This document shows positions 14,749 through 32,000 of a stretch of DNA of 32,000 nucleotides, piece after piece (within the stretch, counting starts at the first letter, position 1; each line of letters starts with the position of its first letter). Source of the stretch: an uncultured Alphaproteobacteria bacterium (lineage in GTDB: Bacteria; Pseudomonadota; Alphaproteobacteria; Rs-D84; CACZYB01); NCBI GenBank assembly GCA_934246625.1, contig CAKQHZ010000002.1:90001-122000 (forward strand), read 5' to 3'. The notes under the pieces were generated by a model that saw only the letters and a list, made by a program, of their open reading frames with translations, had not been told where the DNA came from and made no database searches. A program made the position numbers and the translations under genes.

Positions 14749-14964
14749 ATGAAAAATTCAATAGATTTTGGCCGTTTGATAGAAGACTTTAGAAAGGCAC
14801 AAGGTTTAACACAAGCTCAACTTGCTTCATTATCAAATGTCGGAGTAAGATTTATTAGTGATTTAGAAAAAGGTAAGGAAACTTGCCAACTTCAAAAGGC
14901 TTTACATGTTGCAAGAATATTGGGGATACAATTTACAACAAACAATGTTAGTAAGGATAAATAA
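14749..14964 (+). CDS. hipB: XRE-family HTH antitoxin (HipB-like)
   Basis: 71 aa with the HTH LTQAQLASLSNVGVRFISDLEKGK. The stop overlaps the hipA ATG by 1 nt. Confidence 0.85.
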   Translation: MKNSIDFGRLIEDFRKAQGLTQAQLASLSNVGVRFISDLEKGKETCQLQKALHVARILGIQFTTNNVSKDK

Positions 14965-16205: not shown

Positions 16206-16562
16206 ATGGCGTGGTTTGCAAAAGAGATTAGAGTTCCAGAATTAGGAATAGTGATATATCCGGAGGTAAAAGTTACAGTGACACATTCTCAGTCAATTTT
16301 TAGTTGTTATAATGCAAATAAATATTACAAAGATATTGTTAAAGAAAATTTAAAAGATTTCTATTCTGATCCAATTAATGAAAGAAAAGCAATTAATGCT
16401 TGTATTACCTTATATCATTTAGCTGATTGGTACTGGAAAGATGATCCTAAAAAGCAAGAAAAGAAAAAATCTGTTCCATATAGTTTAGCTTTAGCTGATT
16501 TAGCAAATGCATCAAAGCATTTTGAACCAAAAAGAACATATCTCTCTGGAAGTATTGAATGA
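16206..16562 (+). CDS. Hypothetical protein, third gene of the hipBA cluster (118 aa as read; frame continues past TGA)
   Basis: The ATG immediately follows the hipA TAA with a 0-nt gap. No family recognised; notable residues are LYHLADWYW and LANASKH. The in-frame TGA at 16560 is followed by 34 more open codons to TAA at 16665. Confidence 0.6.
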   Translation: MAWFAKEIRVPELGIVIYPEVKVTVTHSQSIFSCYNANKYYKDIVKENLKDFYSDPINERKAINACITLYHLADWYWKDDPKKQEKKKSVPYSLALADLANASKHFEPKRTYLSGSIE

Positions 16563-16669
16563 ACTAATAAAGCAAAGGTTTTAACTTTAAATCATGGAGA
16601 TCAAATAATAAAAATAGAAGATATGTTGCATGAAATAGAAGATTATTGGGATAAATTACTAAAATAAAA

Positions 16670-18430
16670 TTAATTAAATGCTTTTTTTAATTTTTCAGCA
16701 ATAAGTTTTCTTCTTTCGCTTATAAACTCTCTAAAATCTTTTATATCGGTATATTTAGAAGGAATAAGTTGTTTTTTACAATCAATACTATTTTGTGTAA
16801 TCCAATCTTTTAATGGTTTTTCTTTTTTAGATTCATTATCATTTCCATATAATAACTGAAGATTTAAGATGCTATTCCAATTATTTTTATCCAAATAAAA
16901 TTCTGTATCTTCAACTGAAAGATTTAATTTTTTAATATTGTTTTTACTAAATATAATTTCGGGATGTAAATGGTCTTTATGCTTTATGTCGCGGTAATCC
17001 GAACCATCATATAATAAAACCAAAATAGGAAAGGCATATCTAGAATCCTTTTGTTCAGTCAATAAACTTTCAATAAATTCATCATCAACATTTAGTGACT
17101 TTCTTGTTCCTTCTAACTTTTTTTTAATTTCAGAAATTGGAAATTTTTTATTTTTTGATTCTTTGATTACATCTCTTATATCTTTTAAAATAGAATCTGC
17201 TTGTCCTCCAAATATTTTTTTCAAGAATACAATATTTAACCACTTTAGGATAATATTACGATCTTCTTTATAATTAGTTTTTTTACAAAATCCTCTAGTC
17301 TTATTTTTTACACTTAAATAATAAACAATAAGAGCAACGGCATTATATGATGTGATTGTATTATCTGTATGCCCATAATTTTTTAGTAAAGTAAAAACTT
17401 CTTTAATAGTTGTTTTTACACCATTTTCTGTATTCCAATCATTTTCAAACGATGATAAACAATCTTTAGATAAATTGTTTATTTTAAATCTTACATCTTC
17501 GCTATAAATCAATAAAGCACATCTTACAATAAATTCTTTTGAAAAATTATAAAAGCCCATATTTTTAATTTCTTTTTCCAAATTATTAAATTCTAATCGT
17601 GCATCAATTTTTGACCAACTTGATATAATTGTAGATATTAGTAAATCAGAGAAAGATAATTTTTCCCCACCACTATTTGTTCTTATAAAGATTTTTAACG
17701 CTTTATTATAATCTTCTGTTTCTTCTAAATAGTAATTTATCAATGGTTTATCATAAATAATATTTCTTAATTTTGATATAGTGTCTTGTGCAAATTCATT
17801 CTGAGCAAATTGTTTTATAATAGTTGTTACCATATTTGATGGTGTTTGATAATTGGTACTCAATATGTCTTCAACTTTAAAAAAACGGGAATTTCCTCCT
17901 TTTTCTTCAAATTCTTCTTCTGTAAAAAAATAAAATCCATATTCCCTTTCATCATCATATTCTTTAATAGTTTTAATTTCTTCATCTGTATAGTCTTTAT
18001 ATTTTTTGCAAATATCTAAATATAATTTTCTTTTTGGAAAATTATCAATATTATCCAAACGTGAATAAGCGTTCTTATAAGCATATGATCCTTTTAATCC
18101 AAGATATAAAGCAGTTAATCTTTGTTGACCATCTAAAACAGCATAAAAACTTTGTATTCCTCTAGGATTAAATTGTGTAGCAATCTCTTTGTGATATTCT
18201 ATATATTCAGTAATAAATTGATAATACTTATATTTTTCTTTATTGTCTGTACTATTAACTTTCCAAAAAAGAAAAGAATTAATAGGAAAATCACACATCA
18301 AAGAATCAAACAATAATTCAATATCATTTGTCTTCCAAACAAATTCTCGTTGTATAGCAGGCAATAAAAATTCTCTTTTATCTATTTTTTCTATAACATC
18401 TTTAATAAAAAAAGGAGTTTGAAAACTCAT
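16670..18430 (-). CDS. GmrSD-like Type IV (modification-dependent) restriction enzyme, DUF262 plus DUF1524
   Basis: N-terminal ParB-like DUF262 motifs (LPAIQREFVW, LDGQQRLTALYLG). C-terminal His-Me finger-type DUF1524 motifs (KDHLHPE ... NLQLLYGNDNESK). RBS GGAGG. Confidence 0.85.
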   Translation of the reverse strand: MSFQTPFFIKDVIEKIDKREFLLPAIQREFVWKTNDIELLFDSLMCDFPINSFLFWKVNSTDNKEKYKYYQFITEYIEYHKEIATQFNPRGIQSFYAVLDGQQRLTALYLGLKGSYAYKNAYSRLDNIDNFPKRKLYLDICKKYKDYTDEEIKTIKEYDDEREYGFYFFTEEEFEEKGGNSRFFKVEDILSTNYQTPSNMVTTIIKQFAQNEFAQDTISKLRNIIYDKPLINYYLEETEDYNKALKIFIRTNSGGEKLSFSDLLISTIISSWSKIDARLEFNNLEKEIKNMGFYNFSKEFIVRCALLIYSEDVRFKINNLSKDCLSSFENDWNTENGVKTTIKEVFTLLKNYGHTDNTITSYNAVALIVYYLSVKNKTRGFCKKTNYKEDRNIILKWLNIVFLKKIFGGQADSILKDIRDVIKESKNKKFPISEIKKKLEGTRKSLNVDDEFIESLLTEQKDSRYAFPILVLLYDGSDYRDIKHKDHLHPEIIFSKNNIKKLNLSVEDTEFYLDKNNWNSILNLQLLYGNDNESKKEKPLKDWITQNSIDCKKQLIPSKYTDIKDFREFISERRKLIAEKLKKAFN

Positions 18431-18549
18431 TTAGGCCTCCATAAAATGGTTAAGACTACTATATTATACAAATATTGATAAATCAAGCTATTATATAAAT
18501 AAAAATTTTTATTCATAATGTAATATTATTAGAAAAGATTAATGTAATA

Positions 18550-19455
18550 CTATATTTTTTCTACATAAGATAGCATTCTATCAATAGCACCGTTAGTACT
18601 CTGTAAAACTGGAGCATTTAAAAGTCTTGCATAAACTTGCGTAGATTGTAATGACTTATGGCCTAATGATTTACCTATTATTTGCAAACTTGAGCCATTA
18701 ATTGCTTGATAGCTTCCAAGTGTTCTTCTTAGATCATGTATTCTAAGATTTTCTATACCTGCACGCTTTAGTAAAGCTTGCCAATGACGTTTAGGTTCAA
18801 CCAAATGACCACAAGCAGATGTTTTACTTGGAAATACCCATTCTGATGTAGTTGTTTGTTTCATTTCAGAAAGTAAAGCCAATGCTTTCATAGTTAATGG
18901 ACAATCCATACTTTCTCCATTCTTAGTCATAGGTATAAACCAAACACCAAGTTTAAAATCAATTTCTGACCATCTCATAGCAAGTACATTACTTCTCCGC
19001 TGGCCAGTATAAAGTGAAAGTAAGATATAGTTTCTAAACAACATATCTGGATCTTCAAATAATGCACTGAAAAATGGTTGTAATTCATCTGGAAGTATAA
19101 AACGTTCTCTTGATTTAAGTCTAAAATTCTTAATTCCATCAGTTGGATTTTTACCTAGATATCCCTACTCAATAGCACGATGATACATAGTCTTAATAAG
19201 TTTTAATGTATTATTAGCAGTTGTTCTCATTCCTGCACGATCAATGTAAGAAATAATCCTTTCTATATCTTGTCTTATAACCGAAGACATTTTCTTATAA
19301 CCAATAAAAGGATGAATTTTGCTTTTAAAAATATAATCATCATGTTCTATTGTTCTTGGTCTTTTATTGCTAACAGAATAATTCTCTCTGTAATATTTAT
19401 AATAGTCATCAAGAGTTATATCATGAGATGAAATAAAGTTACCTAAAACAGACAT
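18550..19455 (-). pseudogene. Tyrosine recombinase/phage integrase interrupted by one in-frame TAG
   Basis: The ORFs 19455-19165 and 19044-18550 are in the same frame, and the codons between them are open: ...YHRAIE*GYLGKNPTDGIKNFRLKSRERFILPDELQPFFSALFEDPDMLFRNY.... The catalytic residues are intact (TGQRRSN, HDLRRT, LGH, QVYA). RBS GAGGAG precedes the start. Confidence 0.85.
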
Positions 19456-19760
19456 AGTATTTGCTCCTCATCACGGCAGAAAATCAGGAAGAATTATAAA
19501 AAAAATGGTTGGATAAATTATCTCCTAAGATACTTGTAATTGGTGAAGCTAAGGATGAAAGCGATAATATATGTTATTACGAAGGTTATAATACTATAAC
19601 TCAAATGTCAACTAAAGATATTCTCTTTAATTCCGGAAATAATAGAGTAGATATATATACTTCAAATATAGATTATAAATTATCATTTGATTGCAATAAT
19701 AAAAATCTTTCTCAAATAGGAAATTGTTATTATAAAGGATCAATAATTATAGGAGAATAA
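19448..19760 (+). pseudogene. Possible 3' remnant of an MBL-fold (ComEC C-terminal-like) hydrolase gene, frameshifted
   Basis: One frame reads DIVFAPHHGRKSGRIIKK and stops. After an A8 run, the next frame reads LDKLSPKILVIGEAKDE.... This parallels the HHGS...P-K-x-x-I-x-G layout of MBL-fold C-termini. It rests on weak motif-level similarity only. Confidence 0.3.
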
Positions 19761-19853
19761 CTATGAAAATAGAAATGCCTTTTTATGACATTATTAATAG
19801 ATTTTTTACAGGAATAATCTTTTATTATGCAATAATAAGTAAATAGTTTTCCA

Positions 19854-19883
19854 TTGACTCTTAAAGATTAACTTTCATAAAAT
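19854..19883 (+). promoter_or_regulatory. Candidate promoter for the HU gene
   Basis: TTGACT (19854-19859), 18-nt spacer, TAAAAT (19878-19883). Confidence 0.4.
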
Positions 19884-19936
19884 ATCAGTGTTAGGCAATA
19901 AAACCTAAGAGTTTAATAAATAATAGGAGAGATATT

Positions 19937-20209
19937 ATGAATAAAACTGAATTTATTGAAGCTATTGCAAAAGAATTAGGAGCAACAAAAGCTGATGTTG
20001 CAAAATTCATTGCTGCAGAACAAAGTGTTATTGCTAAAACACTTAAAAAAGGTAAATCAATCCAATTGGTTGGTTTTGGAACATACTCAGTTGTAAAACG
20101 TGCTGCAAGAAAAGGTCATAACCCAATGACTGGTAAGGAAATTAAAATTCCAGTTTGCAAAGCTCCAAAGTTTAAACCAGGTAAAACTTTGAAAGATGCT
20201 TTGAACTAA
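19937..20209 (+). CDS. hup: HU/IHF-family nucleoid-associated DNA-binding protein
   Basis: 90 aa. MNKTEFIEAIA..., GFGTYSVVKRAARKGHNPMTGKEIKIP..KAPKFKPGK is the classic HU beta-arm. RBS AGGAG. Confidence 0.92.
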   Translation: MNKTEFIEAIAKELGATKADVAKFIAAEQSVIAKTLKKGKSIQLVGFGTYSVVKRAARKGHNPMTGKEIKIPVCKAPKFKPGKTLKDALN

Positions 20210-20212
20210 TAG

Positions 20213-20236
20213 AAGGCCTTCGAAAGAAGGCTTTTT
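20213..20236 (+). terminator. Rho-independent terminator of hup
   Basis: GCCTTC-gaaa-GAAGGC (GNRA tetraloop; the stem is extendable by flanking A/T pairs) followed by TTTTT. Confidence 0.75.
20220..20236 (+). repeat. Left copy of the 17-nt direct repeat TCGAAAGAAGGCTTTTT
   Basis: An identical 17-mer recurs at 24551-24567, and the surrounding roughly 25 nt are near-identical. Confidence 0.8.
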
Positions 20237-20259
20237 AAATCTTTAAATATCTATTTTGG

Positions 20260-20300
20260 ATGTCAATAGCATAATCAAAATTATCTTATGCTATTGACAT
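20260..20300. promoter_or_regulatory. Perfect 15-bp inverted repeat (operator-like) overlapping the -35 of the helicase-nuclease gene
   Basis: ATGTCAATAGCATAA (20260-20274), an 11-nt spacer, then TTATGCTATTGACAT (20286-20300), which is the exact reverse complement. Confidence 0.5.
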
Positions 20301-20323
20301 AGTTATTTATGAAAATGTATAAT
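20294..20323 (+). promoter_or_regulatory. Near-consensus sigma70 promoter of the helicase-nuclease gene
   Basis: TTGACA (20294-20299), 18-nt spacer, TATAAT (20318-20323). RBS AGGAG (20333-20337) lies 7 nt before the ATG at 20345. Confidence 0.55.
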
Positions 20324-20344
20324 CACTCCGTTAGGAGTTTTGTT

Positions 20345-23300
20345 ATGGTTAATAAAAAATTTTCACAATTAAAATTTGAAAAAAACTTTCTTGAGAAATT
20401 ACTAAGTAAGCTTACGGTTGGAAATGGACGTTCAATACATTTGAATGCGGTTCCAGGAAGAGCTAAAAATAGGCTTGATATTTCAGATTTAGATATAGCA
20501 TCAGTAAAACCTATATCGACAGATTTTTTAGATAAGCTAACTTCTAAAGAAAAATTTGAATATAAAATATCGTTTGATAGTAGTATATTAACAAAAGCAG
20601 ATGATGATTTAAAAAATAAATTATCAACTATCTCTAAAAAATTGGATGCTATAGTTTCTGATAATGAGGATATGTATTTAGAAACAGGTATAAAAAATTT
20701 TGGTTTTGGATATCCTTTAATTATAAAGGCAGATACAAAAGCCCAAAGAGTTATTGTTTCACCAGTGTTTATTTGGATGTTAGATATAAAAAAATCTAAT
20801 AAGAAAAATGAATGGATTATTTCTAAAACAGAAGATAGTCCAATAAAAGTAAATGAACTTCTTATTTCCCATATTAAAAATGATGAACAAATTGAACTTG
20901 ATAAATTAACATCAGAAGAATTAGATGATAATATTTTATCAAAGGAAGAAATTATTGCTTATTTAAATAATTTACTCAAAAAATTAAATTGTCATTGTAG
21001 TATAGATAATGTTTCACTTACAAAAAGTTTACTTACTAAAAAGGAATATGAAAAGTTAGCTAATAATGAGGCTTGGATACAATGGAGTGGTATTTTGGGA
21101 TTATATAAATCCCCTAAGGAAACAATTATAGATTCTGTTTCTGAATTGATAAAAAAACTTGAAAAATTTAATTCTGAAAGTCTTGAAATAAGTCCATTCC
21201 AGAAGTTAACAACAACATCTTTCGATATAGATTCAAGTAAACGAGAGATTATAGATACTCTTGATCATGATGAATTCAAAATCATTCAAGGACCTCCTGG
21301 AACGGGTAAATCTCAGGCCATTTCTGCAATTATTTCAAATGTTTTAGCAAATAAGGCCAAGGTTTTGGTTGTATGTGAAAAGAAAACTGCTTTGGATGTT
21401 TTAAAATCAAATCTTCAAAAAGAAAAATTGGATGAGTTTTCTATACTTATAGATGATGTTATAAAAGATAGAAAAAGTGTAGTAGATAAGGCCAGAAAAA
21501 TATTTGATGAAATAAAGTTTAATTATAGTCATTCATATTTTGATGATGATATTTTTAGCAGTACATATTCTTGTTTTTTAGATTTAAAAGATAAAGTAAA
21601 TGCGGCCTATGAAGAAACAAGTAAAAATATATTCTTAGGAAAAAATTGGAAAGATATTATTGGTGAGTATTTAAAAGTATCAAAAGAACATAACATAAAA
21701 GAAGTAATAGATAATTTCAAAAAATTTGCTTTTTCTTTTACAGAAGAAGAATTTAATACATACATTGATAATATTAAAAGAGGTATATTTTTACAAAATT
21801 CAATAAAATCAATTGATAAAAATACATTTTGTTACATTGATTTCAATGCATTTGATGATAAAATAAGTTTAAAACAAAAAAATGATATAGAAAGACAAAT
21901 AGATGAAGTTGAACATATTGTCAATAAAGCAAAACAGTATTTAAATTCTAATGATTTTTCTTGTTTAAATTTGAATATATTATCTCCTGAAGGAGTTATT
22001 AATAAAAAAATAGAATTAATTGATAATTGTATGCAATTCATTACATCTATAAATGAATTTTGTAATTCAAATCAAGATTTAACTGTAGATGATTACAAAA
22101 AAATTAAACTTTTGTTTGAAAATTATAATAAAGTTATAAAAAGTATAGATTCAAATTTGAATATTCTTGTTGATAATACTGTATTTGATAAGTTATCTAA
22201 TATTGTAATTATTCAATCTATTATAAAAAATATGTTAGATATTTGTGATAAATTTAGTATCCAAAATCTTAATCATAGTTTAAAGAACTTAGTTCTTGGA
22301 TGGTTTAATACTAAGTATAAAGAATATTTCAAAAATTTTAAAAAATTTAAAAGTCTTTTCTCTGAATTATATTCAAAATCTAATAAATATTCTAAATATA
22401 ATGAAAACGTTTCATTTATAAAAAAGTATAAAGAATACAAGCAATCAGAATTATTAGTTGATGATTTGAAAAATTTAAACTTGATATTAGATAATGATAA
22501 ATTGTTATTTTCAAATTCTTTATCGGAATATTATAATTCAATTATAGAGGCAAAGAAAACTTTAAACGAATATAATATAAATTGTAAATCTATAATTGAT
22601 TGTAAAGTATTTATCGAAAAAACAAATAAATCTATAACAGATATATTCAAGTTAATAACAAATGATATAAAATCGTCCTTAATTTCTATTAAAGATTATT
22701 TATCTCAACTTGATACAATTTTAAATAAGGTTTCGCTATTAAAAGATAATTTATCTCAACTTGATGATTATAATTCATGGATAAAATTTTATAAACAAAA
22801 TAAAAAGTTGATAAATGCTCTAGAAGAATATGATAATAATTCTTGGGAAAATATTTTTAAGACAGTTTATTTTTGTAGTTTTCTATATGCCTTTGAAAAT
22901 AATTCAAAGATATCTTTCAATAAAAATGACGGAAAATTAAAAAGATTAGATGAATATTGTAATAAATTACAATCCGACAGTATTGGCAGAATATATGATG
23001 TTTGGAATGAACGTAGAATAGATGCTGCGGACTATTTAGATTGTAAATATGGATTTAAAGCATTATTTGCATTAAAAAAGAATCAAAAATTTGGTAAACG
23101 TTTATCATTAAAACAAATTATAAATAAAGATTTCAATTCATTTACAGATTTATTTCCTGTTATTTTAGTAAATCCTATAGTTGCAAATACATTATTTCCT
23201 TTAAAACAAGGACTATTTGATATTGTTATATTTGATGAATCCAGTCAATTAAGAGTAGAAGATGTTTATACAGCTATGCTTCGTGGAAAATATAAAATTA

Positions 23301-24532
23301 TTGCAGGAGATCAGCATCAGATGCCTCCTTCAAATTATTTTGGAGCTAAAATAGAAGATGAAGATATGGATTCAGATTCTGATGATGAAATTAGGGATCA
23401 AGCTCAGTTAAATGCTGAATCATTGCTTGTATTTTCAGAATCTCTAAAATACAAAAATATATCATATTTAGATTTTCACTATAGATCACAACATCCATTG
23501 TTAATTCAATTTTCAAATGCTGCTTTTTATGGTGAAAATTTGTGTCCATTACCTGTAAAAGGAAAAGATTATACTCCAATAATTATGAAAGAAGTTAATG
23601 GAACATATTATGGAACACCAAAAAATATAAATTCTAAAGAAGCTGATGAGGTTATTAAAATTTTAGAATCAATAAATGAGGATGAAAACGGAAATATGCC
23701 TAGTGTAGGAATTGCTACATTTAATGTTCATCAAAGAGAACTTATTAAAGAGAAATTATATGATAAAGCATATTCTGATCCTAAAAACTTTGGTGTAAAA
23801 TTTGAAAAATTACAATCCAGTGGTCTTTTTGTTAAGAACTTGGAAAATATTCAAGGTGATGAACGAGATATTATTATTATTTCTACGACATTTGGAAAGG
23901 ATGAAACAGGTAAATTATCTGAAAGATTTGGGGTAATAACGCAAGAAAATGCATATAAATTGCTAAATGTTTTAATAACTAGAGCTAAAGATAAATTATT
24001 TGTTGTTACTTCAATTCCTGAAACAAAGTATTCTCAATATAAGGAGTTATTAGATAAAAATCATCAAAATAATAGAACTGCAATATTTTATGCTTATTTA
24101 TCATATGCAAAAGCTGTTTCAGAAAATAATATGGAATTAGTTAATTCTATATTGAGTGATGTATCTCAATTTAGTTATGATAGAAGTAGAAATATGCAGG
24201 GAATTTTAGGTACAAGTTTAGTAGATTCTCCATTCGAAGAAGAATTATATAATCAACTTTCAGAAGTTGTAGGAAAAAATAATATTCACTACAAATATAA
24301 AGTTGGAGGTTATACATTAGACTTTATGATCGAATATAACGGTAAAAAATTTGCTTTGGAGTGTGATGGTAAACAATATCCTTGTTTTAATCAAGCTTAC
24401 GCTGAAAATATTCAAAGAGAAAAACAAATAGAAAAATTTGGCTATAAATTCTATAGAATATGGTCAATTAATTGGTTTGAGAATGAAAAACAAGAATTAC
24501 AAAAACTAAAAGATTTTTTATCTAAATCCTAA
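20345..24532 (+). CDS. Large SF1 (Upf1/DNA2-like, AAA_11/AAA_12-type) helicase fused to a C-terminal Vsr/DUF559-like restriction-endonuclease-fold domain
   Basis: Start moved to Met13 of the ORF because the promoter -10 and RBS lie inside the 5' extension. Walker A QGPPGTGKS (21290-21313), motif II IFDESSQ (23231-), GDQHQMPP, motif V/VI GDERDIIIIS / LNVLITRAKDKLFVV. C-terminal GGYTLDFMIEYNGKKFALECDGKQY...FGYKFYRIWSINWF matches the DUF559/Vsr-like nuclease core. Confidence 0.85.
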   Translation: MVNKKFSQLKFEKNFLEKLLSKLTVGNGRSIHLNAVPGRAKNRLDISDLDIASVKPISTDFLDKLTSKEKFEYKISFDSSILTKADDDLKNKLSTISKKLDAIVSDNEDMYLETGIKNFGFGYPLIIKADTKAQRVIVSPVFIWMLDIKKSNKKNEWIISKTEDSPIKVNELLISHIKNDEQIELDKLTSEELDDNILSKEEIIAYLNNLLKKLNCHCSIDNVSLTKSLLTKKEYEKLANNEAWIQWSGILGLYKSPKETIIDSVSELIKKLEKFNSESLEISPFQKLTTTSFDIDSSKREIIDTLDHDEFKIIQGPPGTGKSQAISAIISNVLANKAKVLVVCEKKTALDVLKSNLQKEKLDEFSILIDDVIKDRKSVVDKARKIFDEIKFNYSHSYFDDDIFSSTYSCFLDLKDKVNAAYEETSKNIFLGKNWKDIIGEYLKVSKEHNIKEVIDNFKKFAFSFTEEEFNTYIDNIKRGIFLQNSIKSIDKNTFCYIDFNAFDDKISLKQKNDIERQIDEVEHIVNKAKQYLNSNDFSCLNLNILSPEGVINKKIELIDNCMQFITSINEFCNSNQDLTVDDYKKIKLLFENYNKVIKSIDSNLNILVDNTVFDKLSNIVIIQSIIKNMLDICDKFSIQNLNHSLKNLVLGWFNTKYKEYFKNFKKFKSLFSELYSKSNKYSKYNENVSFIKKYKEYKQSELLVDDLKNLNLILDNDKLLFSNSLSEYYNSIIEAKKTLNEYNINCKSIIDCKVFIEKTNKSITDIFKLITNDIKSSLISIKDYLSQLDTILNKVSLLKDNLSQLDDYNSWIKFYKQNKKLINALEEYDNNSWENIFKTVYFCSFLYAFENNSKISFNKNDGKLKRLDEYCNKLQSDSIGRIYDVWNERRIDAADYLDCKYGFKALFALKKNQKFGKRLSLKQIINKDFNSFTDLFPVILVNPIVANTLFPLKQGLFDIVIFDESSQLRVEDVYTAMLRGKYKIIAGDQHQMPPSNYFGAKIEDEDMDSDSDDEIRDQAQLNAESLLVFSESLKYKNISYLDFHYRSQHPLLIQFSNAAFYGENLCPLPVKGKDYTPIIMKEVNGTYYGTPKNINSKEADEVIKILESINEDENGNMPSVGIATFNVHQRELIKEKLYDKAYSDPKNFGVKFEKLQSSGLFVKNLENIQGDERDIIIISTTFGKDETGKLSERFGVITQENAYKLLNVLITRAKDKLFVVTSIPETKYSQYKELLDKNHQNNRTAIFYAYLSYAKAVSENNMELVNSILSDVSQFSYDRSRNMQGILGTSLVDSPFEEELYNQLSEVVGKNNIHYKYKVGGYTLDFMIEYNGKKFALECDGKQYPCFNQAYAENIQREKQIEKFGYKFYRIWSINWFENEKQELQKLKDFLSKS

Positions 24533-24543
24533 TATTGTAGATG

Positions 24544-24568
24544 AAAGCCGTCGAAAGAAGGCTTTTTT
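24544..24568 (+). terminator. Rho-independent terminator of the helicase-nuclease gene, near-copy of the hup terminator
   Basis: GCCGTC-gaaa-GAAGGC (one mismatch) flanked by AAA/TTT pairs, then TTTTTT. Confidence 0.65.
24551..24567 (+). repeat. Right copy of the 17-nt direct repeat TCGAAAGAAGGCTTTTT
   Basis: Identical to 20220-20236. Confidence 0.8.
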
Positions 24569-24569
24569 A

Positions 24570-24597
24570 TTGCATTATTTGATAGTTATGATATAAT
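24570..24597 (+). promoter_or_regulatory. Candidate extended -10 promoter for the 69-aa gene
   Basis: TTGCAT (24570-24575), 16-nt spacer ending TGa, TATAAT (24592-24597). Confidence 0.5.
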
Positions 24598-24668
24598 GAA
24601 CTCTGGATTTAAAATCCAAGTGAATTTAAACCAACTTGTCCTACTTAGTGGACTAAAAGGAGTCTATT

Positions 24669-24878
24669 ATGAATTTCAGTTTTAGTTTTAAAGATTATAC
24701 TATTTTCAGATTAAACGGTAAGTGGAGATTTTATTCTGATGATATAACTATTGAAAAGGAAGAGGCATTAGAAGTGCTAAATTACTTAAATAGTTTGGAA
24801 GTAAAGGATTATTGTAAAATTCCAGAATTTCTTGATTATTTCTATTTAAGAAGAAAATTTAGACTTGTAAATAAATAA
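24669..24878 (+). CDS. Small hypothetical protein (69 aa)
   Basis: RBS AAAGGAG lies 7 nt before the ATG, and the gene has its own promoter-like element. No motifs recognised. Confidence 0.55.
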   Translation: MNFSFSFKDYTIFRLNGKWRFYSDDITIEKEEALEVLNYLNSLEVKDYCKIPEFLDYFYLRRKFRLVNK

Positions 24879-24898
24879 GTTTAGTATATAATGAACCC

Positions 24899-25142
24899 AT
24901 GATGATAGTAAAAATCAATAAATAGGTTGAACTAGAATAATCGGTTTTAAAACCCTTTGATTTTAGCCATCTTGAGGCATGTAGGTCTGAGTTTAGAACT
25001 TATGTTTTTGCCACCCCATACAGCAAGATACAACTTAGATTTTCAAGAAATCCAGGATATCTACGATTTTAGAAAAGTTAGAATATTGGCACTGTAGACC
25101 TCACCAAAAATTTCAAGTCATCTTATGATGGCTTTTATTTTT
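24899..25142 (+). ncRNA. Candidate structured non-coding transcript or 5' leader (about 240 nt), class unknown
   Basis: A promoter-like TTGTAA-16-TATAAT (24865-24892) lies upstream and an intrinsic terminator at 25116-25142. No ORF of 60 aa or more on either strand across 415 bp. Long-range complementary segments are present (see findings). Confidence 0.3.
25116..25142 (+). terminator. Rho-independent terminator inside the tpsA upstream region
   Basis: AGTCATC-ttat-GATGGCT (7 bp with one G-U) followed by TTTTATTTTT. Confidence 0.6.
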
Positions 25143-25294
25143 ACCCTTCAAGGACCATTTCTGGTGATTATAGCAACCTTCTATCAACCTGCTTAGAATG
25201 GTTTTATGTGGAATAAAAACGTTAAAAAACTTCTTGCAAAATCAAATAAATAATGCTAAATTCCAACTCAGATTAATGACAATAAGAGTATAAT

Positions 25295-28200
25295 ATGTCA
25301 AATTTTAGCAAAATATTTCAGCTTTTTTCGAAAGGATTTTGCAAAAGTTTAATTTTTTATTTCTCTTTTTACTTAATATTTTCCCCTTTATTTTCTTTTC
25401 AAGTTTTTGCTCAAACTTTGCCAATTAATCCAATTCCCAACAATGCAACATTAGGCACTTTTTCAAATAATATTCCTGTTCTTAATATAACAAAACCAAC
25501 AACATCTGGGGTGTCGGTTAATAAGTTTCATAATTTCAATGTTGGTAAAGAAGGATTGATTGTAAATAATCTTAATTTACAAAATTATAATATAACTTAT
25601 AAATCTGCATTATCTAATCAACATGTCGAGTTTAATCCGAATTTTCGTAATGGTGATGCTGCTAAAATTATTTTGAATGAAGTTGTTTCAAATTCAAAAA
25701 CATTGATGAATGGATATACGGAAATTTATGGTCGTAAAGCAGATTATATTGTTGCTAATCCAAATGGTATAACTTGTAATGGTTGTGGTTTTATAAATAC
25801 ATCTAGGCTTTCTTTGATAACGGGATCATCTAATATTGTAAATGGAGATATAGAAAATTTTAATATAGCACCAACTGCCGAATTAAGAATTAATGGAGTT
25901 GGTGCAGAGAATTTCGCCTTTTATAGCTCCAGTCCAGCAGATATTGTTTCAAATGCAATAAAAATTTCAGGAAATATTTTATCAAATAGTGATTTAAGAA
26001 TACTATCAGGTAATGATAAATATAATTGGAAAAATCAAGATGTATCATCGAATAGTAATGTTAATACAGAACTTGCGGTTGATGTTTCAGCTCTTGGCGG
26101 TATAAAGGCGGGTAATATTAAAATTATAGCAACACAAAAAGGTTTCGGAATAAATCTTGATGGTGATGTTATTGCAGATACTGATAATATTGAAATTACT
26201 GCAGATGGAGAAATCAAAGTTAAAAATCTTGTTGCTCAGAATAATATAGTTACTACTTCTAATGATAAAATTACTGCTATTGATAATGGAGAATTGGTAT
26301 CAAATAACTTAATTTATTTTGATGCAGGAAATATTTTATTAAATAAAAGTAAATTAGTTTCCAATGATATATATTTGTTAAGTAATGAAGATTTTATCAA
26401 TAATACAGGTATTGTAAATTCAAATAACAATTTATTTATAGGAGTAAATGGAAATTTTACAAATTCTTCAAATATTATTTCTAAGAATAACTTTGAATTA
26501 CAAGTTCTTGGCAATATAAGTAATAAGAAAAATGCTAACTTAATTGCATATAATGATTTTGATATAATAACAAATAATGATTTAGAAAATATTGGAAAAA
26601 TAAATACAGGGAATAATCTTTTTATAAGTGCATTAAATCTAAACAATTATGGTCAATTACTTTCAAACTATGATATGGATTTATATATCGGTAATGATCT
26701 TATAAATTATCGTGGTTCAGGTATTTTAGCCGGTAATGATATACACCTTTATATAGGAAATAACCTTATCAATTACAAAGCTGATATTTATGCAGGAAGG
26801 GATTTAATTATCGAAGGAAGAAATGATTTAAGTGTTAATTATCAATCATTAGATACAAATAAAACTTATGATAACCCTTATATAGAGGCAGAAACAGATC
26901 CAAACATAACAGTTGTTAATATTCCATTTACATATACTGATGTTCCCGATGATGAAGATGTAAATCTTACTTTAACACTTGCAAATGGAGAAGTTGTTGA
27001 TATTCCACCAAGCTATATAAAAGATGATGCCAAAGCTGGAGATAAATTTGTATATAAAGGATATATATTTATTTTTGGAGAAGAAAGTATCACAGAAATT
27101 GACGTTCCAAATTCTGCATACCAAACTTGTGTAGGTGATGAATGTGTTGGAATACCACAAACAATTAAGAAAACCATATACAATTATAGTGGTACTGATA
27201 AATTTACGATAAAGGATAATAATGGCAACAACATTTCCTATACTGAAACTATACCTGCGGGTGATCCAAATGATGAAAAAATAGTTTTAGATAGTACAAA
27301 TGTTGTGGATAACAATGTATTAGATAAATTAAAAAATATTACGACTAATTATCCATTTATAAATAATTTTTTTAATAATTTCGTAAATTATGCTGGAAAA
27401 ATAGAGGCAAAGCGAAATATTGAAATTTCCTCAAATTCTATCACAAATAAAGGATTTGATTATAATACTGGAGATAAAGCTATAACAAAACATTATCACA
27501 AAATCAGAAATGAAGCCTGTGGTTGGATTTGTGGTTGGAAAGTTTTAGGTCAGGAAGAAATTGATAGTATAAATCTTAATAGTTTACCCTCATCAATTGT
27601 TGCTGGTGGAATAATAGCTCTTAATTCAACAAAAAATATTTTGAATCAAAACAGTATTCTTTCTTCAAAGGGAGATATATTTATTAAAACAAATAATCTT
27701 CAAAACCTTACTACAAGTGAAATTATAAATTTTATTGTAAATATGCAAAGAATTAAATTAAGAAAAAAAGGTTTAAAGATAAGAAAAAAAACTGAAAACA
27801 AACCTGAAATAACTAAAAAACGTGTTTATAATAAACAAAGGGCAACAATCCTTGCGGGTGGTAATTTATCAATTGTATCAAGTGAACATATAAAAAATGA
27901 TCAAAATGTAAATCCAAATGGAGATATTGTCGCTACTCTTACAAACAAAAATATAGAAGAAGCTGTTATCCCTGTTGATATAGAATTACCAGTAGGAAAT
28001 AATGGTCGTTTTAAGATTTCTGAAGGTAGTAAATATCTTATTGAAAATAATGTTCCATTTATAAATGTAGAAAATTATGTCGGAAGCGATTATTTCTTTG
28101 ATGGCAAAGGTGCTCTTTTTAATGGTGTTGATACGAATAAAATCATCGGGGATCCTGCCTATGAAACAAAGATAATTATGGATGCAATTTTAAAGGCAAC

Positions 28201-31200
28201 CCAGAAACACTATCTTGCTAATGATGGAAGTATTGGTAGTGATGCCGATCAAATGAAACAACTTTATGATAACGCATTAGAAGTTCGAGAAGAATTAGGT
28301 TTAAAAGTCGGTATTGCATTAAACAAAAGTCAGATTACAAACCTTAAAAAAGATATTATTTGGTATATTACAAAGGAAGTGAATGGTGAAAAGGTTCTTG
28401 TTCCAGAATTATATTTATCACAAGCAACCTTAAATGTAATAGATAATAATAATGGATCAAAAATTAGTGGGTTTAATGTAGGTATTGAATCTGATTATGT
28501 ATCAAACTATGGAAATATTACATCAAACAATATTCTTTCTGTAAAATCTAATAGCCTTGTAAATGAAAGCAATGATAATCAAGTTGCGACAATGAAATCC
28601 AAACGATTAACAACAATAGATTCTAAAAATATTGCAAACCTATCAGGTAATATAGAAGGTAAAATAACCCAAATAAAGTCCGATAATCTGATAAATCAAA
28701 CAAAAGTATTAAGTTCAGATTATGATGATAAATATGAACTTAAGAAACATACTGAAATAGCAGGAAATATTGCAACTATCAGTGGTGAGAAAGGATTGTC
28801 TATAGAAGCAAATAATGCTTTAGTTAATAGTGGAGCAAAGATAGAAAGTAAAGATGGCAATGTAAATATAAAAGCTGGAACTGCAACATTTAATACTATC
28901 CAGCTTCATAATAGGACAGAAACAAAAAAGACTAGTGATAACCTAGTTTCCAAAAAAACTAAAATATCAATCAAAGATACTATTGAAAATAAGGAAAGTG
29001 AAATAAATGCAGGTGGAAACTTTAATCTTTCAACATCAAATGATGCAAATTTTGCCGGAGCAAATATGTCGGTTGGTGGTGATGCATTGCTTGATATTGG
29101 TGGGCAAACCAATATCTTGGATGTGAAAGATACGGAGTTTAATTACTCCAAAACTACAAAGTCTTATGCTGGTGGAGTGTATTCTAAAAAGGATACAATA
29201 ATAGATGAAAACGAAATACTTAAAAATTCAAATATTACTGTAAAAAATGGATTAAATATTGTTTCAAATAAAGATGTTAATGTTGTAGCAAGCAATATAG
29301 ATATAGGTGGAAATGCAAATCTTCTTGCTGGATATAAACTTACAGAAAGTGGTGTAGAAAAGACAGGAAATAAAGCTAATGTAAATATAATAAATGATAT
29401 TGAAACTTCTTCTCATTATAAAAAACATGAAAAAATAAATGGTCTTGATTTTGATAATTTTGATATATCAGCAAGTAATGGAAAAATTTCTGCAAATATT
29501 GATATTTCTTCTGCTAAAGAAAATGAATTAAAAGAAAATACAAATAATGTTGTGTCATCAAATCTAAATATCGCTGGTAATTTAAATATATCAACAACAA
29601 ATGATATAAATATCAAGGCATCAAATATAGATGCTAGTGTAAATAGTTATTTGAATGCAGATAATGATATAAATATCATAAATGATTTTAATACCTCAAA
29701 AAGCGAAAATATAGAAAAAGATATTACAAAATCAGTTGGGGGAAATGTTGGAAATGGCTATGTTGATGTTGCTTATGCAACTAAGGCTTTGATTGATGCA
29801 GAACAGTCTGTAAAAAAAGCAAAAAAGGAATTGAAAAAGATTAAAGAGGCTCGTGATAGAGGTGAAGTAAGTAATGAAGCCGTAAAAGATGCAGAACTTA
29901 ATTTATCCCTTGCAATTATCAACTTTACAAATGCTGAAATTGCATTAGCATCAAGTATTGCTGGAGCAGCTTCTGCTGCTGCAAGTAGTTATGGAACAGG
30001 TTTTTATATTTCAGGTTCTTTGACTGATGATATAGATAAATACACTGAAAATTCAACTTTTTCACAAGCAGTAGGAAGCAATTTAACTGCTGAAAACATA
30101 TCTTTAAAATCTGGTAATAATATGACACATATAGGTTCAAATATCGTTGCAAATGATACAATTTCCTATGATATAACAAATAAATTAAAGGTGTTTGCAG
30201 GAGAAAATACTTACCGTTCTGAATCCTATAATGAACATATTACAGCAGGAGCATCATACGGAAATAATGCTGTTCAAGGTAATGTTGGATATGATAAATC
30301 AAGAAATGTTTCCAGTGGAACAAGTTTTACAAATTCCAATATAATTGCAGAAAATATTCAAATAAAGACTGGTAGTGATGCTAAATTTGATGGTGCAAAT
30401 GTCAGTGCAAACGAAAACCTTGTCGCCTCTGTTGGTGGCGATTTAATCATTGAATCAAAACAGGATTCTGATTATGCGAAGGGAAAAAGTTTCGGAATGA
30501 GTTTATCCGGTGGTGCGGGTGTTAGAAAAGAAGCTGTTGGTAAAGGTTCTGTTGGTATCGGGTTTAACACAGGAAAATCAAATCATGACAGTAGTTGGGT
30601 TAATGATATGACCGAGCTGACAGCGAAAAATGTTGATATAAATGTAGCAGGAAAAACTTCACTTACTGGTGCAATGATTGATGGAAGTGAAAGCCTCCAC
30701 CTTGCAACAAATGAACTTGAATTTAAAGATTTGCACGATTTTGAACGCTCAACTGAAACAGGATATGGTGTAAATACAGGTGTTGGTATCTCAACGAATA
30801 AAGAAAAAACAAACCTTCATCCAAACGGTGAAACTTCCCTTACTTTAAATGATAAAGGATATAATAAAGAGCAAATTACCCGTGCGACAATTGGCAAAGG
30901 TGTAATTGAGGTTGTCCAAGGTTCTGATTTGACAGGTCTTAACCGTGACACCTCAAAAGTCCAAGAAATTACAAAGGATATGACAACCGGCACCCTTAAT
31001 ACTACCGCAAATATAGATAACCGAGTATTTACAAGTGAAGGTAGAAATAGTATAGTAAATGAGCATAAAGACTTAAAAGAAAATACTATTATGACATTAA
31101 AAGATATGTCTGTTGCAGCGATTACAACTATAGGATTGTTATGGGGAGGTATAGAATATGCATATTCTTATATTTTAAATGAAGAAAAACCAAATATTAT

Positions 31201-31585
31201 TATTGATAATGAAAAAAATAAAATTATGTTTACAAAAAATATTTTTGCTTCAAATATCTTGGGAGTAGATGGAGCTATTACTTTAGGAAATATACAATTA
31301 TATTACAATAAAAATAATCCATATAAAATTGTAGCACCGTATAGTACTACAGATTATGGTTTTATGCCATTAGAATATCATGAGGATGCTCATATAAATC
31401 AATGGCATAGGGATGGTGCTCTAAAATTTATATGGAATTGGTTACAAAATGGAGGGGCAAGTATGCATAATAGTTATGAACGAGAAGCTAGTTTAGAAGG
31501 TATGAATAGATTAAAAGATGAAGGTGTTTATCATATTATTCAAAATAATAAATATAAATATTACAAAAATGGAGAAATAGAATGA
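25295..31585 (+). CDS. TpsA-family exoprotein (filamentous haemagglutinin / CdiA-like) with a variable C-terminal HExxH module
   Basis: Signal peptide ending VFA-QT. The TPS secretion domain has ILNEV...ANPNGITCNGCGFIN...LITG. About 1500 aa of Asn/Gly/Ile-rich beta-helical repeats follow. The conserved GLNRDTSKVQEITKD region comes before an AT-rich C-terminal tail containing HEDAH (31379-31393). Confidence 0.93.
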   Translation: MSNFSKIFQLFSKGFCKSLIFYFSFYLIFSPLFSFQVFAQTLPINPIPNNATLGTFSNNIPVLNITKPTTSGVSVNKFHNFNVGKEGLIVNNLNLQNYNITYKSALSNQHVEFNPNFRNGDAAKIILNEVVSNSKTLMNGYTEIYGRKADYIVANPNGITCNGCGFINTSRLSLITGSSNIVNGDIENFNIAPTAELRINGVGAENFAFYSSSPADIVSNAIKISGNILSNSDLRILSGNDKYNWKNQDVSSNSNVNTELAVDVSALGGIKAGNIKIIATQKGFGINLDGDVIADTDNIEITADGEIKVKNLVAQNNIVTTSNDKITAIDNGELVSNNLIYFDAGNILLNKSKLVSNDIYLLSNEDFINNTGIVNSNNNLFIGVNGNFTNSSNIISKNNFELQVLGNISNKKNANLIAYNDFDIITNNDLENIGKINTGNNLFISALNLNNYGQLLSNYDMDLYIGNDLINYRGSGILAGNDIHLYIGNNLINYKADIYAGRDLIIEGRNDLSVNYQSLDTNKTYDNPYIEAETDPNITVVNIPFTYTDVPDDEDVNLTLTLANGEVVDIPPSYIKDDAKAGDKFVYKGYIFIFGEESITEIDVPNSAYQTCVGDECVGIPQTIKKTIYNYSGTDKFTIKDNNGNNISYTETIPAGDPNDEKIVLDSTNVVDNNVLDKLKNITTNYPFINNFFNNFVNYAGKIEAKRNIEISSNSITNKGFDYNTGDKAITKHYHKIRNEACGWICGWKVLGQEEIDSINLNSLPSSIVAGGIIALNSTKNILNQNSILSSKGDIFIKTNNLQNLTTSEIINFIVNMQRIKLRKKGLKIRKKTENKPEITKKRVYNKQRATILAGGNLSIVSSEHIKNDQNVNPNGDIVATLTNKNIEEAVIPVDIELPVGNNGRFKISEGSKYLIENNVPFINVENYVGSDYFFDGKGALFNGVDTNKIIGDPAYETKIIMDAILKATQKHYLANDGSIGSDADQMKQLYDNALEVREELGLKVGIALNKSQITNLKKDIIWYITKEVNGEKVLVPELYLSQATLNVIDNNNGSKISGFNVGIESDYVSNYGNITSNNILSVKSNSLVNESNDNQVATMKSKRLTTIDSKNIANLSGNIEGKITQIKSDNLINQTKVLSSDYDDKYELKKHTEIAGNIATISGEKGLSIEANNALVNSGAKIESKDGNVNIKAGTATFNTIQLHNRTETKKTSDNLVSKKTKISIKDTIENKESEINAGGNFNLSTSNDANFAGANMSVGGDALLDIGGQTNILDVKDTEFNYSKTTKSYAGGVYSKKDTIIDENEILKNSNITVKNGLNIVSNKDVNVVASNIDIGGNANLLAGYKLTESGVEKTGNKANVNIINDIETSSHYKKHEKINGLDFDNFDISASNGKISANIDISSAKENELKENTNNVVSSNLNIAGNLNISTTNDINIKASNIDASVNSYLNADNDINIINDFNTSKSENIEKDITKSVGGNVGNGYVDVAYATKALIDAEQSVKKAKKELKKIKEARDRGEVSNEAVKDAELNLSLAIINFTNAEIALASSIAGAASAAASSYGTGFYISGSLTDDIDKYTENSTFSQAVGSNLTAENISLKSGNNMTHIGSNIVANDTISYDITNKLKVFAGENTYRSESYNEHITAGASYGNNAVQGNVGYDKSRNVSSGTSFTNSNIIAENIQIKTGSDAKFDGANVSANENLVASVGGDLIIESKQDSDYAKGKSFGMSLSGGAGVRKEAVGKGSVGIGFNTGKSNHDSSWVNDMTELTAKNVDINVAGKTSLTGAMIDGSESLHLATNELEFKDLHDFERSTETGYGVNTGVGISTNKEKTNLHPNGETSLTLNDKGYNKEQITRATIGKGVIEVVQGSDLTGLNRDTSKVQEITKDMTTGTLNTTANIDNRVFTSEGRNSIVNEHKDLKENTIMTLKDMSVAAITTIGLLWGGIEYAYSYILNEEKPNIIIDNEKNKIMFTKNIFASNILGVDGAITLGNIQLYYNKNNPYKIVAPYSTTDYGFMPLEYHEDAHINQWHRDGALKFIWNWLQNGGASMHNSYEREASLEGMNRLKDEGVYHIIQNNKYKYYKNGEIE

Positions 31586-31935
31586 AGTATAAATATATTT
31601 TCTTATTTATTTTATTATCATGTGATATAACAAAATTAAATTATCCACTTGATATAGAAAATAAATTTCCTAATGAAATTTTTGTTGAGGCCTGCGATTA
31701 TTCAAACAAATGTTCTTTTGTTCATAATTATAAATTTGATTTATATAAAAATGCAAAATATGGAATAGTTTATTCCCCAGTAAAAATATTAAATTTTTAT
31801 GATAATAAACATAATTTATTATATTCATATACAAATGAAGAATTAAAAAATATAAAAATAAGTGCAGGTTATTCTTTAAGTAGTAAAAATATTTGTGCTA
31901 CTGTTACAAAAAATGGTCTAATGATAAATGACTAA
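31582..31935 (+). CDS. Small lipoprotein, candidate immunity protein for the TpsA C-terminal toxin
   Basis: The ATG overlaps the tpsA TGA (ATGA). The signal peptide MKYKYIFLFILLSC carries a lipobox (LLSC). 117 aa, in the position a cdiI gene normally occupies. Confidence 0.65.
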   Translation: MKYKYIFLFILLSCDITKLNYPLDIENKFPNEIFVEACDYSNKCSFVHNYKFDLYKNAKYGIVYSPVKILNFYDNKHNLLYSYTNEELKNIKISAGYSLSSKNICATVTKNGLMIND

Positions 31936-32000
31936 ACTACTAACTTACATATTTCTTTTCTTATTTTCATTTACCTCATCAGTAAATGCCTGCTATTTTG
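31928..32000 (+). CDS. Start of a second small lipoprotein-like gene (runs off the window)
   Basis: The ATG at 31928 overlaps the previous gene by 8 nt. MTKLLTYIFLFLFSFTSSVNAC is a signal peptide with a lipobox-like VNAC. Only 24 codons are visible. Confidence 0.4.
   Translation, partial: MTKLLTYIFLFLFSFTSSVNACYF

Follow-up and report, generated by a model that had tools for sequence, protein, structure and literature searches.

The locus

We analysed a stretch of 32,000 nucleotides from an uncultured Alphaproteobacteria bacterium (contig CAKQHZ010000002.1, positions 90,001 to 122,000 of the forward strand; hereafter the window). Towards its end lies a tpsA/cdiA-like gene for an exoprotein of the two-partner secretion (TPS) type, whose C-terminus is a small domain with an HExxH motif, and a lipoprotein gene follows directly. 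The features of this locus are listed below, with residues numbered in TpsA.

25295..31585, + strand: tpsA/cdiA-like gene, encoding a 2096-amino-acid exoprotein with an extended signal peptide; one unbroken open reading frame (ORF)
25415..26221, + strand: TPS domain for secretion, residues 41-309 (PF05860, E 1e-35, 124 bits where the cut-off is 33.5)
30041..30496, + strand: best-scoring stretch of FHA-2-type hemagglutinin repeats, residues 1583-1734 (PF13332, 83.5 bits)
30783..31045, + strand: GC-rich constant 3' region of tpsA, ending in GLNRDTSKVQEITKD-MTTGTLNTTAN-IDNRVFTSEGR
31046..31585, + strand: variable toxin cassette, residues 1918-2096, a 19-residue linker and a 160-residue HExxH domain, delimited by a break in homology
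31106..31177, + strand: Gly/Ala-rich N-terminal helix MSVAAITTIGLLWGGIEYAYSYIL, residues 1938-1961 (helix 2-25 of the AlphaFold model, predicted local distance difference test score (pLDDT) ~90)
31271..31306, + strand: beta-hairpin GAITLGNIQLYY, residues 1993-2004 (model strands 58-61 and 64-68)
31379..31405, + strand: HEDAHINQW, putative zinc-binding and catalytic motif (H2029, E2030, H2033, Q2036), residues 2029-2037 (model helix 90-104)
31469..31489, + strand: NSYEREA, residues 2059-2065, with N2059 invariant; starts model helix 124-140
31582..31935, + strand: candidate immunity gene for a 117-amino-acid lipoprotein (lipobox LLSC, Asp at +2), with a 4-nucleotide overlap with the tpsA stop codon
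31928..32000, + strand: MTKLLTYIFLFLFSFTSSVNACYF, with which the following orphan cassette opens; duplicates the part of tpsB that encodes the signal peptide; runs to the window end

A preliminary description of this DNA had called the gene product a CdiA-like exoprotein carrying a swapped toxin cassette, and its TPS domain, FHA-2 repeats and swapped C-terminal cassette were all found. Fil_haemagg_2 (PF13332) matches four stretches of TpsA (E 2e-23 in Pfam), the NCBIfam model adhes_NPXG (TIGR01901) matches as well, and the N-terminus is ~33% identical to an annotated CdiA of Escherichia coli. No TpsB/CdiB transporter gene lies within the window, which stops inside the cassette array; the homologous arrays in three related contigs (L001, L005 and L023) end with a TpsB of the ShlB/POTRA type.

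A junction without VENN

The boundary between the constant and variable parts of tpsA can be placed by homology to related loci. Between 25295 and 31042 the window is 95.3% identical to the main tpsA gene of L005, and homology to the main tpsA genes of L005 and L001 breaks off at 31042-31069, directly after ...IDNRVFTSEGR. Beyond this point the L005 protein has a Phage_lysozyme tail, and the main TpsA of L001, whose gene is 75-80% identical to that of the window, ends in a Tox-URI2 domain. One scaffold bears HExxH, lysozyme or Tox-URI2 tails, which is the cassette polymorphism expected of a swapped tail. The cassette foreseen in the preliminary description is real, and the junction lies 25-50 nucleotides downstream of the start that had been assigned to it.

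The constant 3' region (30783..31045), in which GLNRDTSKVQEITKD begins at residue 1881 (30935), is 97-98% identical to the orphan copies in L001 and L005 and 95% identical to the main tpsA of L005 as far as 31042. It carries none of the usual boundary motifs. As had been claimed, motif and Pfam searches found no VENN (PF04829), ELYN or QLYN in TpsA and no VENN-coding DNA, and residues 1740-1937 gave no Pfam match at E<=10, DUF637 and VENN included. Instead, the junction is marked by the motif LNRD..(Q)EITKD..TGxLD..IDNRxF, which is also found in the distant homologues P0012-P0016 and P0021, and copies of the constant 3' region head the orphan cassettes. Judged by its position in these alignments, the motif is the predicted functional counterpart of the VENN pre-toxin boundary, whose place it takes.

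The step in base composition at the junction had been taken as the mark of a swapped, AT-rich toxin cassette. The step itself holds, with a GC content of 38.9% at 30400-31000 (37.6% at 30300-31018) versus 26.3% in the tail. The tail is not the outlier, however: it lies at the baseline of the window (27.6%) and of the ORF body (27.9%), and the part with an unusually high GC content is the conserved pre-toxin segment. Because the GC content of the tail is that of the genome, we rejected its AT-richness as a sign of foreign origin.

Cassette exchange with arrays of orphan pairs

Related contigs carry the HExxH cassette away from the main gene. The arrays in L001-L004 start with a 2235-amino-acid TpsA that has a different tail, continue with a series of small genes and have TpsB at the end; in the series, an HExxH cassette (P0002, 276 amino acids) and an identical 117-amino-acid gene form an orphan pair. 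Positions 30852-31999 of the window are 96.6% identical to the P0002 cassette of L001 together with its 117-amino-acid gene. The HExxH cassette is in the orphan position in L001, L023 and L008, and the order in related arrays is tpsA, then the cassettes, then tpsB. Near-identical or identical tail proteins in metagenome assemblies are recorded only as short separate genes, because the contigs carry the cassette as an orphan; human-gut samples are the source of at least some of these contigs. These alignments show that the cassettes beyond the junction are interchangeable and that recombination brings them in from the orphan toxin/immunity pairs arrayed downstream.

The orphans have a common architecture. 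All of the orphan ORFs open with a copy of the tpsB signal peptide (MTKLLTYIF..SSVNA) that continues in the same frame into a piece of the tpsA 3' end. Such starts lie at 31928-32000 in the window and at 8427, 10001, 11174 and 13741 in L001, where tpsB itself starts at 14969. The start in the window is covered by the 96.6% match to the orphan cassette of L001, after which the next L001 ORF begins at 11174; the MTKLLTYIFLFLFSFTSSVNACYF region is 91% identical to the L001 orphan start at 13741 and 82.5% identical to the L001 tpsB start at 14969. Since the orphans combine a tpsB signal-peptide copy with a tpsA 3' fragment, homology to tpsA-3' and tpsB-5' seems to delimit the cassette units.

Several other rearrangements were observed in the related arrays. 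In L005 (8469-9702), the lysozyme-tailed sister allele, with a 95% identical scaffold, is followed by a 165-amino-acid protein with a signal peptide; the lysozyme tail is, by its sequence, a predicted second envelope-acting toxin type of this TPS family. Both the main tpsA of L005 and an orphan (8453-8469 and 9985-10001) stop at ...GLNRDTSKA and restart at MTTGTLD, skipping QEITKD. This shared stop could be a lesion (nonsense or frameshift) spread by gene conversion, an assembly artefact or a regulated feature. A different HExxH region, ..GLGVFGHEIGH(S/A)(M/I)YG.., occurs in other cassettes upstream of the terminal toxin, namely in the L001 tail (~6700-7883, before Tox-URI2) and in L008 (1947-2846); this region may represent another zincin-like module, unrelated to the first, and might act as a processing peptidase.

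Two sets of orphans contain only part of the HExxH cassette. P0011 (L005 10001-10573) is a chimera with its breakpoint at the equivalent of window position 31367, just before HExxH: its first 117 cassette residues are 97% identical to those of the window, an unrelated 65-residue C-terminus without a Pfam match follows, and its partner is an 81-amino-acid protein without a signal peptide. P0006-P0010 (L023 9001-9857) are 168-amino-acid orphans in which the HExxH domain has lost its N-terminal helix. They consist of the tpsB signal peptide, an ..AINRGxTGAGIFSLKNF.. segment from another cassette and the HExxH domain, and the 117-amino-acid lipoprotein gene is kept beside them, directly before tpsB.

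The HExxH domain

The tail has no match in Pfam or NCBIfam and belongs to a small family. Searching 1.84 billion cluster representatives with HMMER yielded 12 clusters (50% identity) at E<=1e-3, and the family alignment, scanned against 185,579 species genomes, added one distant locus, in a Candidatus Dadabacteria metagenome-assembled genome (L006). HExxH occurs once in TpsA, where 0.014 occurrences are expected by chance from the protein composition. Every element of the G-x-x-T-L-G-N-x-I ... HExxHxxQ pattern that had been read in the tail was found where it had been placed.

Conservation is concentrated around this pattern. In an alignment of ten domains (A2), the other nine are 27-52% identical to that of the window; no variation is seen at the second HExxH His, at the Gln three positions further on or at the Asn 26 residues downstream of the second His. 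Near-invariant are the first His and the Glu (each in 9/10 sequences), together with a Pro, a Gly, a Trp and another Gly. The column three past the invariant Asn has E in eight sequences and D in two, and E2062, which lies 29 residues past the second His and at the start of the next long helix of the model, is a candidate third metal ligand of the gluzincin type. All intact homologues retain AITLGN..Y, HExxHxxQW and NPxE, so that HExxH is conserved in every one of them, down to 27% identity. P0020 (QKNEH) was considered as an exception and rejected, since this sequence is what is left of a truncated P0021-type protein.

AlphaFold2, run with the ten-sequence alignment, predicts one domain (pLDDT 91.9, predicted template-modelling score (pTM) 0.86). 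The model runs from helix 2-25 through five strands, which include the AITLGN..Y hairpin, to the HExxH helix (90-104) and the NSYE helix (124-140), and places H93, E94 and H97, the HExxH residues, on helix 90-104 with pLDDT >90. The first helix, MSVAAITTIGLLWGGIEYAYSYIL, had been described as hydrophobic. Its position was right, but it is not strongly hydrophobic: its Kyte-Doolittle maximum over 19 residues is 1.32, it contains E1953 and it is part of the single modelled domain. Homologues keep it as a G/A-rich segment. A transmembrane anchor was rejected on the hydropathy and the single-domain model, and MSVAAITTIGLLWGGIEYAYSYIL is, on the model, probably a packed helix of the domain and not a separate membrane anchor.

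Searches with the model and the tail gave few relatives of known structure or function. Foldseek found no match of the toxin model in the PDB, and hence no solved zincin, and a sequence profile search of the PDB with the tail returned chance matches only. Among the predicted viral structures of BFVD, the best match was an unnamed 116-amino-acid phage protein (E 8e-4). The sole named BFVD match of usable probability was a phage DUF4157 protein (probability 0.87, template-modelling score (TM) 0.67 over 81 residues, root-mean-square deviation 3.5 A over 87 columns), which is weak at E 0.26; a PolyVal metallopeptidase followed at E 0.49 and probability 0.08.

Two homologues stand alone, outside TPS loci: P0019 (L017 5001-5917) and the gene in the Dadabacteria genome (L006 5-936). 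The neighbourhood of P0019 is GC-rich and housekeeping-like and has no delivery protein.

Relationship to zincin-like families

The preliminary description had compared the tail with DUF4157 metallopeptidases and proposed a profile search against DUF4157 and the Tox-MPTase families. Tox-MPTase4 (PF15640) was the only Pfam family to recur around the motif, at E 0.005-0.018 for P0015, P0017 and the family consensus. The best members and the consensus score 15.4-17.3 bits over ~30-50 residues around HExxH, against a cut-off of 25, and the window tail itself has no such match. DUF4157 (PF13699, cut-off 22 bits) gave no match at E<=10 with the tail, its 12 relatives or the consensus; the DUF4157 consensus sequence, as a positive control, scores 112 bits.

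Profile-profile comparison gave a similar order. Since hhalign against single consensus sequences aligned HExxH alone, we used small alignments of real sequences instead: eight plasmid-encoded DUF4157 domains, and E. coli Rhs-CT1 with one Bacillus Tox-MPTase4. The family aligned with Tox-MPTase4 at P=0.002 (probability 13.8%; the Tox-MPTase4 profile has only two sequences) over 73 colinear columns that span the hairpin, HExxHxxQW..G and the E-helix. Against the eight real DUF4157 domains the values were P=0.019 and probability 2.5%, and Tox-MPTase4 against DUF4157 gave P=0.058. The GAITLGNIQLYY hairpin aligns with AfTvGxdIvF of DUF4157 and with AAFD..NIYL of Tox-MPTase4. The resemblance to DUF4157 thus stands as far as the hairpin, HExxHxxQ, the downstream E and the weak structural match go, but membership does not, in view of the missing Pfam match and P=0.019; Tox-MPTase4 is somewhat closer, although below threshold.

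Tox-MPTase4 and DUF4157 belong to a group of mini-zincins, and each is assigned to the zincin-like peptidases (Zhang et al. 2012, PMC3482391). The motif series of Tox-MPTase4 is F[DN], [RK], HExxH (PMC3482391); its F[DN] position falls opposite the ITLGN hairpin in the alignment, where our family does not keep F[DN]. In our reading of the sequences, the family would be a new, divergent branch of the mini-zincin group (hairpin plus HExxHxxQ...E), nearer to Tox-MPTase4 and by thresholds a member of neither.

The partner lipoprotein

The downstream lipoprotein, which the preliminary description had mentioned, co-occurs with the toxin domain across loci. An identical 117-amino-acid protein is encoded downstream of the orphan cassette in L001 and L023, and homologous lipoproteins lie directly downstream of the toxin in five loci: that of the window and L001, and the four below.

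L008: toxin 51% identical; partner of 138 amino acids, lipobox LFSC, plus two paralogues
L007/L021: toxin 44% identical; partner lipobox VSGC
L020: partner lipobox ICGC
L019: partner lipobox LVGC

In L006 (Dadabacteria), the downstream protein has a hydrophobic N-terminus and the family motif ...L.R.DL.QIK.ASG... and is a related exported protein. P0019 in L017 is followed by a 69-amino-acid ORF with a lipobox-like signal, which we count apart from the family. A predicted exported partner is present in 7/7 contexts examined, and the lipobox Cys is invariant in alignment A4 and conserved at >=90% in A5. The immunity protein has no match in Pfam or NCBIfam, and no Pfam model covers the lipoprotein family; its AlphaFold model (pLDDT 69) matched only generic beta-sandwiches in the PDB with Foldseek (E>=0.1). 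In L022 (2465-3572), the immunity homologue P0032 is an orphan and lies with a second lipoprotein between mnmE and mnmG, with no toxin nearby.

The arrays provide an internal control for the significance of export. In the same arrays, the partners read beside other toxin types have no signal peptide, whereas the partner of the lysozyme tail has one. Export of the immunity protein thus goes with envelope-acting toxins.

A probable periplasmic metallohydrolase and its alternatives

We consider it reasonably likely that the tail is a periplasm-acting toxin of the zinc metallohydrolase kind, countered by the lipoprotein and carried by a contact-dependent polymorphic toxin of the TPS type. Catalysis, metal binding, substrate and toxicity we infer throughout. 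In this proposal, H2029 and H2033, and probably E2062, would hold Zn2+ and E2030 would serve as the general base of a minimal zincin-like metallohydrolase domain. The toxin would pass through the outer membrane of the target and be released in its periplasm, as for other CdiA C-termini (CdiA-CTs). It would remain there and cut a peptide bond of the envelope, either in the stem peptides of peptidoglycan or in an envelope protein. Binding of the toxin by the lipoprotein would shield siblings and also the periplasm of the producer, where CdiA-CTs wait before delivery.

Three observations favour the periplasm as the site of action. Only 19 residues separate the junction from the domain, which leaves no room for a cytoplasm-entry domain; the immunity homologues are all exported; and CdiA-CTs are known to be stowed in the periplasm of the inhibitor cell and released in that of the target (PMC11630599).

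Other findings weigh against the proposal. In the P0011 recombinant the domain is broken immediately ahead of HExxH and continues as a different toxin, so that the N-terminal half could be a separable module. The homologues in L017 (P0019) and L006 have no recognisable secretion signal or carrier domain, and every sequence link to known metallopeptidase families is below curated or significance thresholds. Finally, E. coli Rhs-CT1, a Tox-MPTase4 protein for which antibacterial activity that depends on type VI secretion (T6SS) has been reported (PMC6730261), has a 69-amino-acid partner without a signal peptide, and kinship with Tox-MPTase4 therefore does not imply a periplasmic site.

One alternative retains delivery and immunity and changes the chemistry: the HExxH site would belong to a metal-dependent hydrolase that is not a protease, its substrate being an envelope component other than protein; it might be a peptidoglycan amidase, or its target might be lipid II or a different lipid-linked precursor. 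The exported immunity protein places the target in the envelope, the same TpsA family uses a lysozyme-like tail, and the model matched no solved protease fold, all of which would suit such an enzyme. In the zincin clan, however, HExxH with a downstream Glu is overwhelmingly a peptidase signature. The nearest neighbours of the domain by profile and structure, Tox-MPTase4 and DUF4157, are themselves zincin-like peptidases by classification (PMC3482391). We regard a non-protease hydrolase as unlikely.

It is also conceivable that the tail is two modules, with an N-terminal membrane or import part (~1938-2024) that takes a small toxin (~2025-2096) to the membrane or cytoplasm, as in the entry/toxin pairs of CdiA-CTs or in ionophores. 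The C-terminal 65 residues of P0011 are exchanged exactly at window position 31367, together with the signal-less partner; the helix is Gly/Ala-rich and conserved; and ionophores are a large class of toxins in contact-dependent growth inhibition (CDI) (PMC11630599). Yet the AlphaFold model is one compact domain (pTM 0.86), the hairpin and HExxH occur together in every intact distant homologue, including the standalone ones, and P0011 is the only chimera, on a single contig and in the orphan position. The hydropathy of the helix (1.32, with a Glu) is under the ~1.6 that is usual for a membrane span, and the P0006-P0010 orphans keep the lipoprotein gene even though they lack the helix. Immunity proteins of ionophore toxins are integral to the membrane, whereas the lipoproteins have no membrane span past the signal peptide. 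Such a two-part toxin seems to us very unlikely.

A third possibility is that HExxH is structural or vestigial and that the toxin kills without catalysis, for example by binding and blocking an envelope machine. This would be in line with the failure to match a solved structure or any family above threshold, but among domains 27-52% identical to that of the window no positions are better conserved than the two His, the Glu and the Gln, a pattern typical of catalytic residues, and we hold this to be highly improbable. We give hardly any credence to the view that the domain is not an antibacterial toxin and instead is a processing or release peptidase, or a protease directed at the host or matrix from the tip of an adhesin, with an unrelated lipoprotein: zincin-like domains of polymorphic toxins are often releasing peptidases (PVC-metallopeptidase, PMC3482391) and P0019 has its housekeeping-like neighbourhood without a delivery protein, but the domain is at the extreme C-terminus, in the slot that lysozyme and nuclease toxins take on the same scaffold, it is retained as an orphan cassette paired with the lipoprotein, and the lipoprotein family, which also has an orphan immunity gene, tracks the domain over 27-51% identity.

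Implications of a proposed periplasmic toxin

If the toxin is a periplasmic metallohydrolase, it would differ from most known CDI toxins in its route. In a review of CDI and a table of E. coli toxins, few of the characterised ones are anything but nucleases, deaminases or ionophores, and nearly all have to cross the inner membrane of the target by way of a specific receptor (PMC9086364, PMC11630599). A periplasmic enzyme would skip that step, which should broaden the target range and remove receptor loss as a route to resistance. Together with the lysozyme-tipped sister allele, it would show that some CDI systems specialise in envelope-degrading enzymes, as the T6SS does. In our judgement there is an even chance that the tail represents the first class of CdiA/TpsA toxin that is a periplasm-acting zinc metallopeptidase, one that needs no inner-membrane receptor or entry domain, cuts the envelope and is met by a new family of lipoprotein immunity proteins.

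The prediction that polymorphic toxins have zincin-like toxin domains, some of them on carriers of the type V secretion system, dates from 2012 (PMC3482391), and periplasmic metallopeptidases of the T6SS are known; no new principle is therefore involved. What is new is the domain family, the immunity family, the junction motif and a predicted CDI toxin that does not cross the inner membrane. The domain (160 residues) and its partner (~100 mature residues) are small, very rare in current databases and without Pfam models, and natural controls are at hand in the orphan copies, the truncated form, the chimera and the standalone homologues. The small size of the proteins and these controls make for a tractable system in which to find a new envelope target, and the pair would offer a first experimental handle on the poorly understood mini-zincins of the Tox-MPTase/DUF4157 kind.

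Other features of the window

Upstream of tpsA, positions 8862-25129 (~16.3 kb) are an insertion that adjoins tRNA-Arg(TCT) (8774-8850). L023 joins the equivalents of 8073-8861 and 25130-25524 directly, without the ~16.3-kb insertion. The cargo, listed here, looks like a defence island.

9067-9663: resolvase
9743-13405: DNA methylase and ResIII helicase
14964-16205: HipA kinase
16670-18430: GmrSD
18550-19044: integrase fragment
20309-24532: 1407-amino-acid helicase-nuclease resembling the anti-phage proteins ProA and Hhe

ARAGORN also calls a tRNA-Leu(GAG) at 8195-8279 on the - strand, which overlaps the 5' end of the OEP ORF (6788-8236); no tRNA-Leu was found there at the Rfam gathering threshold. 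A megablast of the first 25 kb of the window against plasmids matched tRNA genes only.

Comparison with known systems

The locus shares with the classical CdiA/CdiI/CdiB systems the TPS domain, the FHA-2 repeats and a variable C-terminus past a conserved junction, as well as an immunity gene directly downstream and orphan arrays homologous to the 3' end of the main gene (PMC9086364). It differs in having no VENN, DUF637 or ELYN, in the order tpsA-cassettes-tpsB, in orphans that open with a copy of the tpsB signal peptide and in leaving no space for a cytoplasm-entry domain. A metallopeptidase CdiA-CT would be unusual, as the preliminary description had remarked. The toxin classes listed for CdiA are nucleases, deaminases, ionophores and a C39-like peptidase (PMC11630599), and neither a review of CDI nor a table of E. 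coli toxins has a metallopeptidase CdiA-CT (PMC9086364, PMC11630599). In the literature we found no tested zincin-like tip on a delivery protein of the TpsA type; such tips have been predicted by comparative genomics.

Like Tox-MPTase4, here represented by E. coli PAAR-Rhs-CT1 (NZ_CP011331.1 3144899-3149761), the domain is a small zincin-like C-terminal domain of a polymorphic toxin, in which a hairpin is followed by HExxHxxQ(W)..G and then by an E-rich helix. In contrast to Tox-MPTase4, our family has longer inserts on both sides of the HExxH helix, towards the hairpin and towards the E-helix, an extra N-terminal helix, and AITLGN instead of F[DN]; it is borne by TpsA and not by Rhs or LXG proteins, and its partner is a lipoprotein. 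With the DUF4157, eCIS_core or "PVC-metallopeptidase" domains it has in common the HExxHxxQ...E signature and the preceding A-x-T-x-G-x-x-I-x-F/Y hairpin (PMC3482391). DUF4157, the core of which comprises three strands and three helices, is usually N-terminal to toxins of contractile injection systems and is presumed to be a releasing peptidase, whereas the domain in the window is a terminal TpsA cassette with a candidate immunity gene of its own.

The closest functional precedents are T6SS effectors. VgrG2b-Cter/PA0261 and Tpe1/Tpi1 are pairs of a periplasmic metallopeptidase effector and a periplasmic or lipoprotein immunity protein (PMC6899460). We detected no similarity to them in sequence or by Foldseek, and the structure of the VgrG2b C-terminus was not among the PDB matches returned by either search. 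The likeness is in the arrangement, with a proposed HExxH toxin that would kill solely from within the periplasm and an immunity protein that faces the periplasm and in Enterobacteriaceae is a lipoprotein (PMC6899460). The differences are in delivery, by TpsA/TpsB in one case and by the T6SS spike in the other, and in the immunity proteins, which belong to unrelated families.

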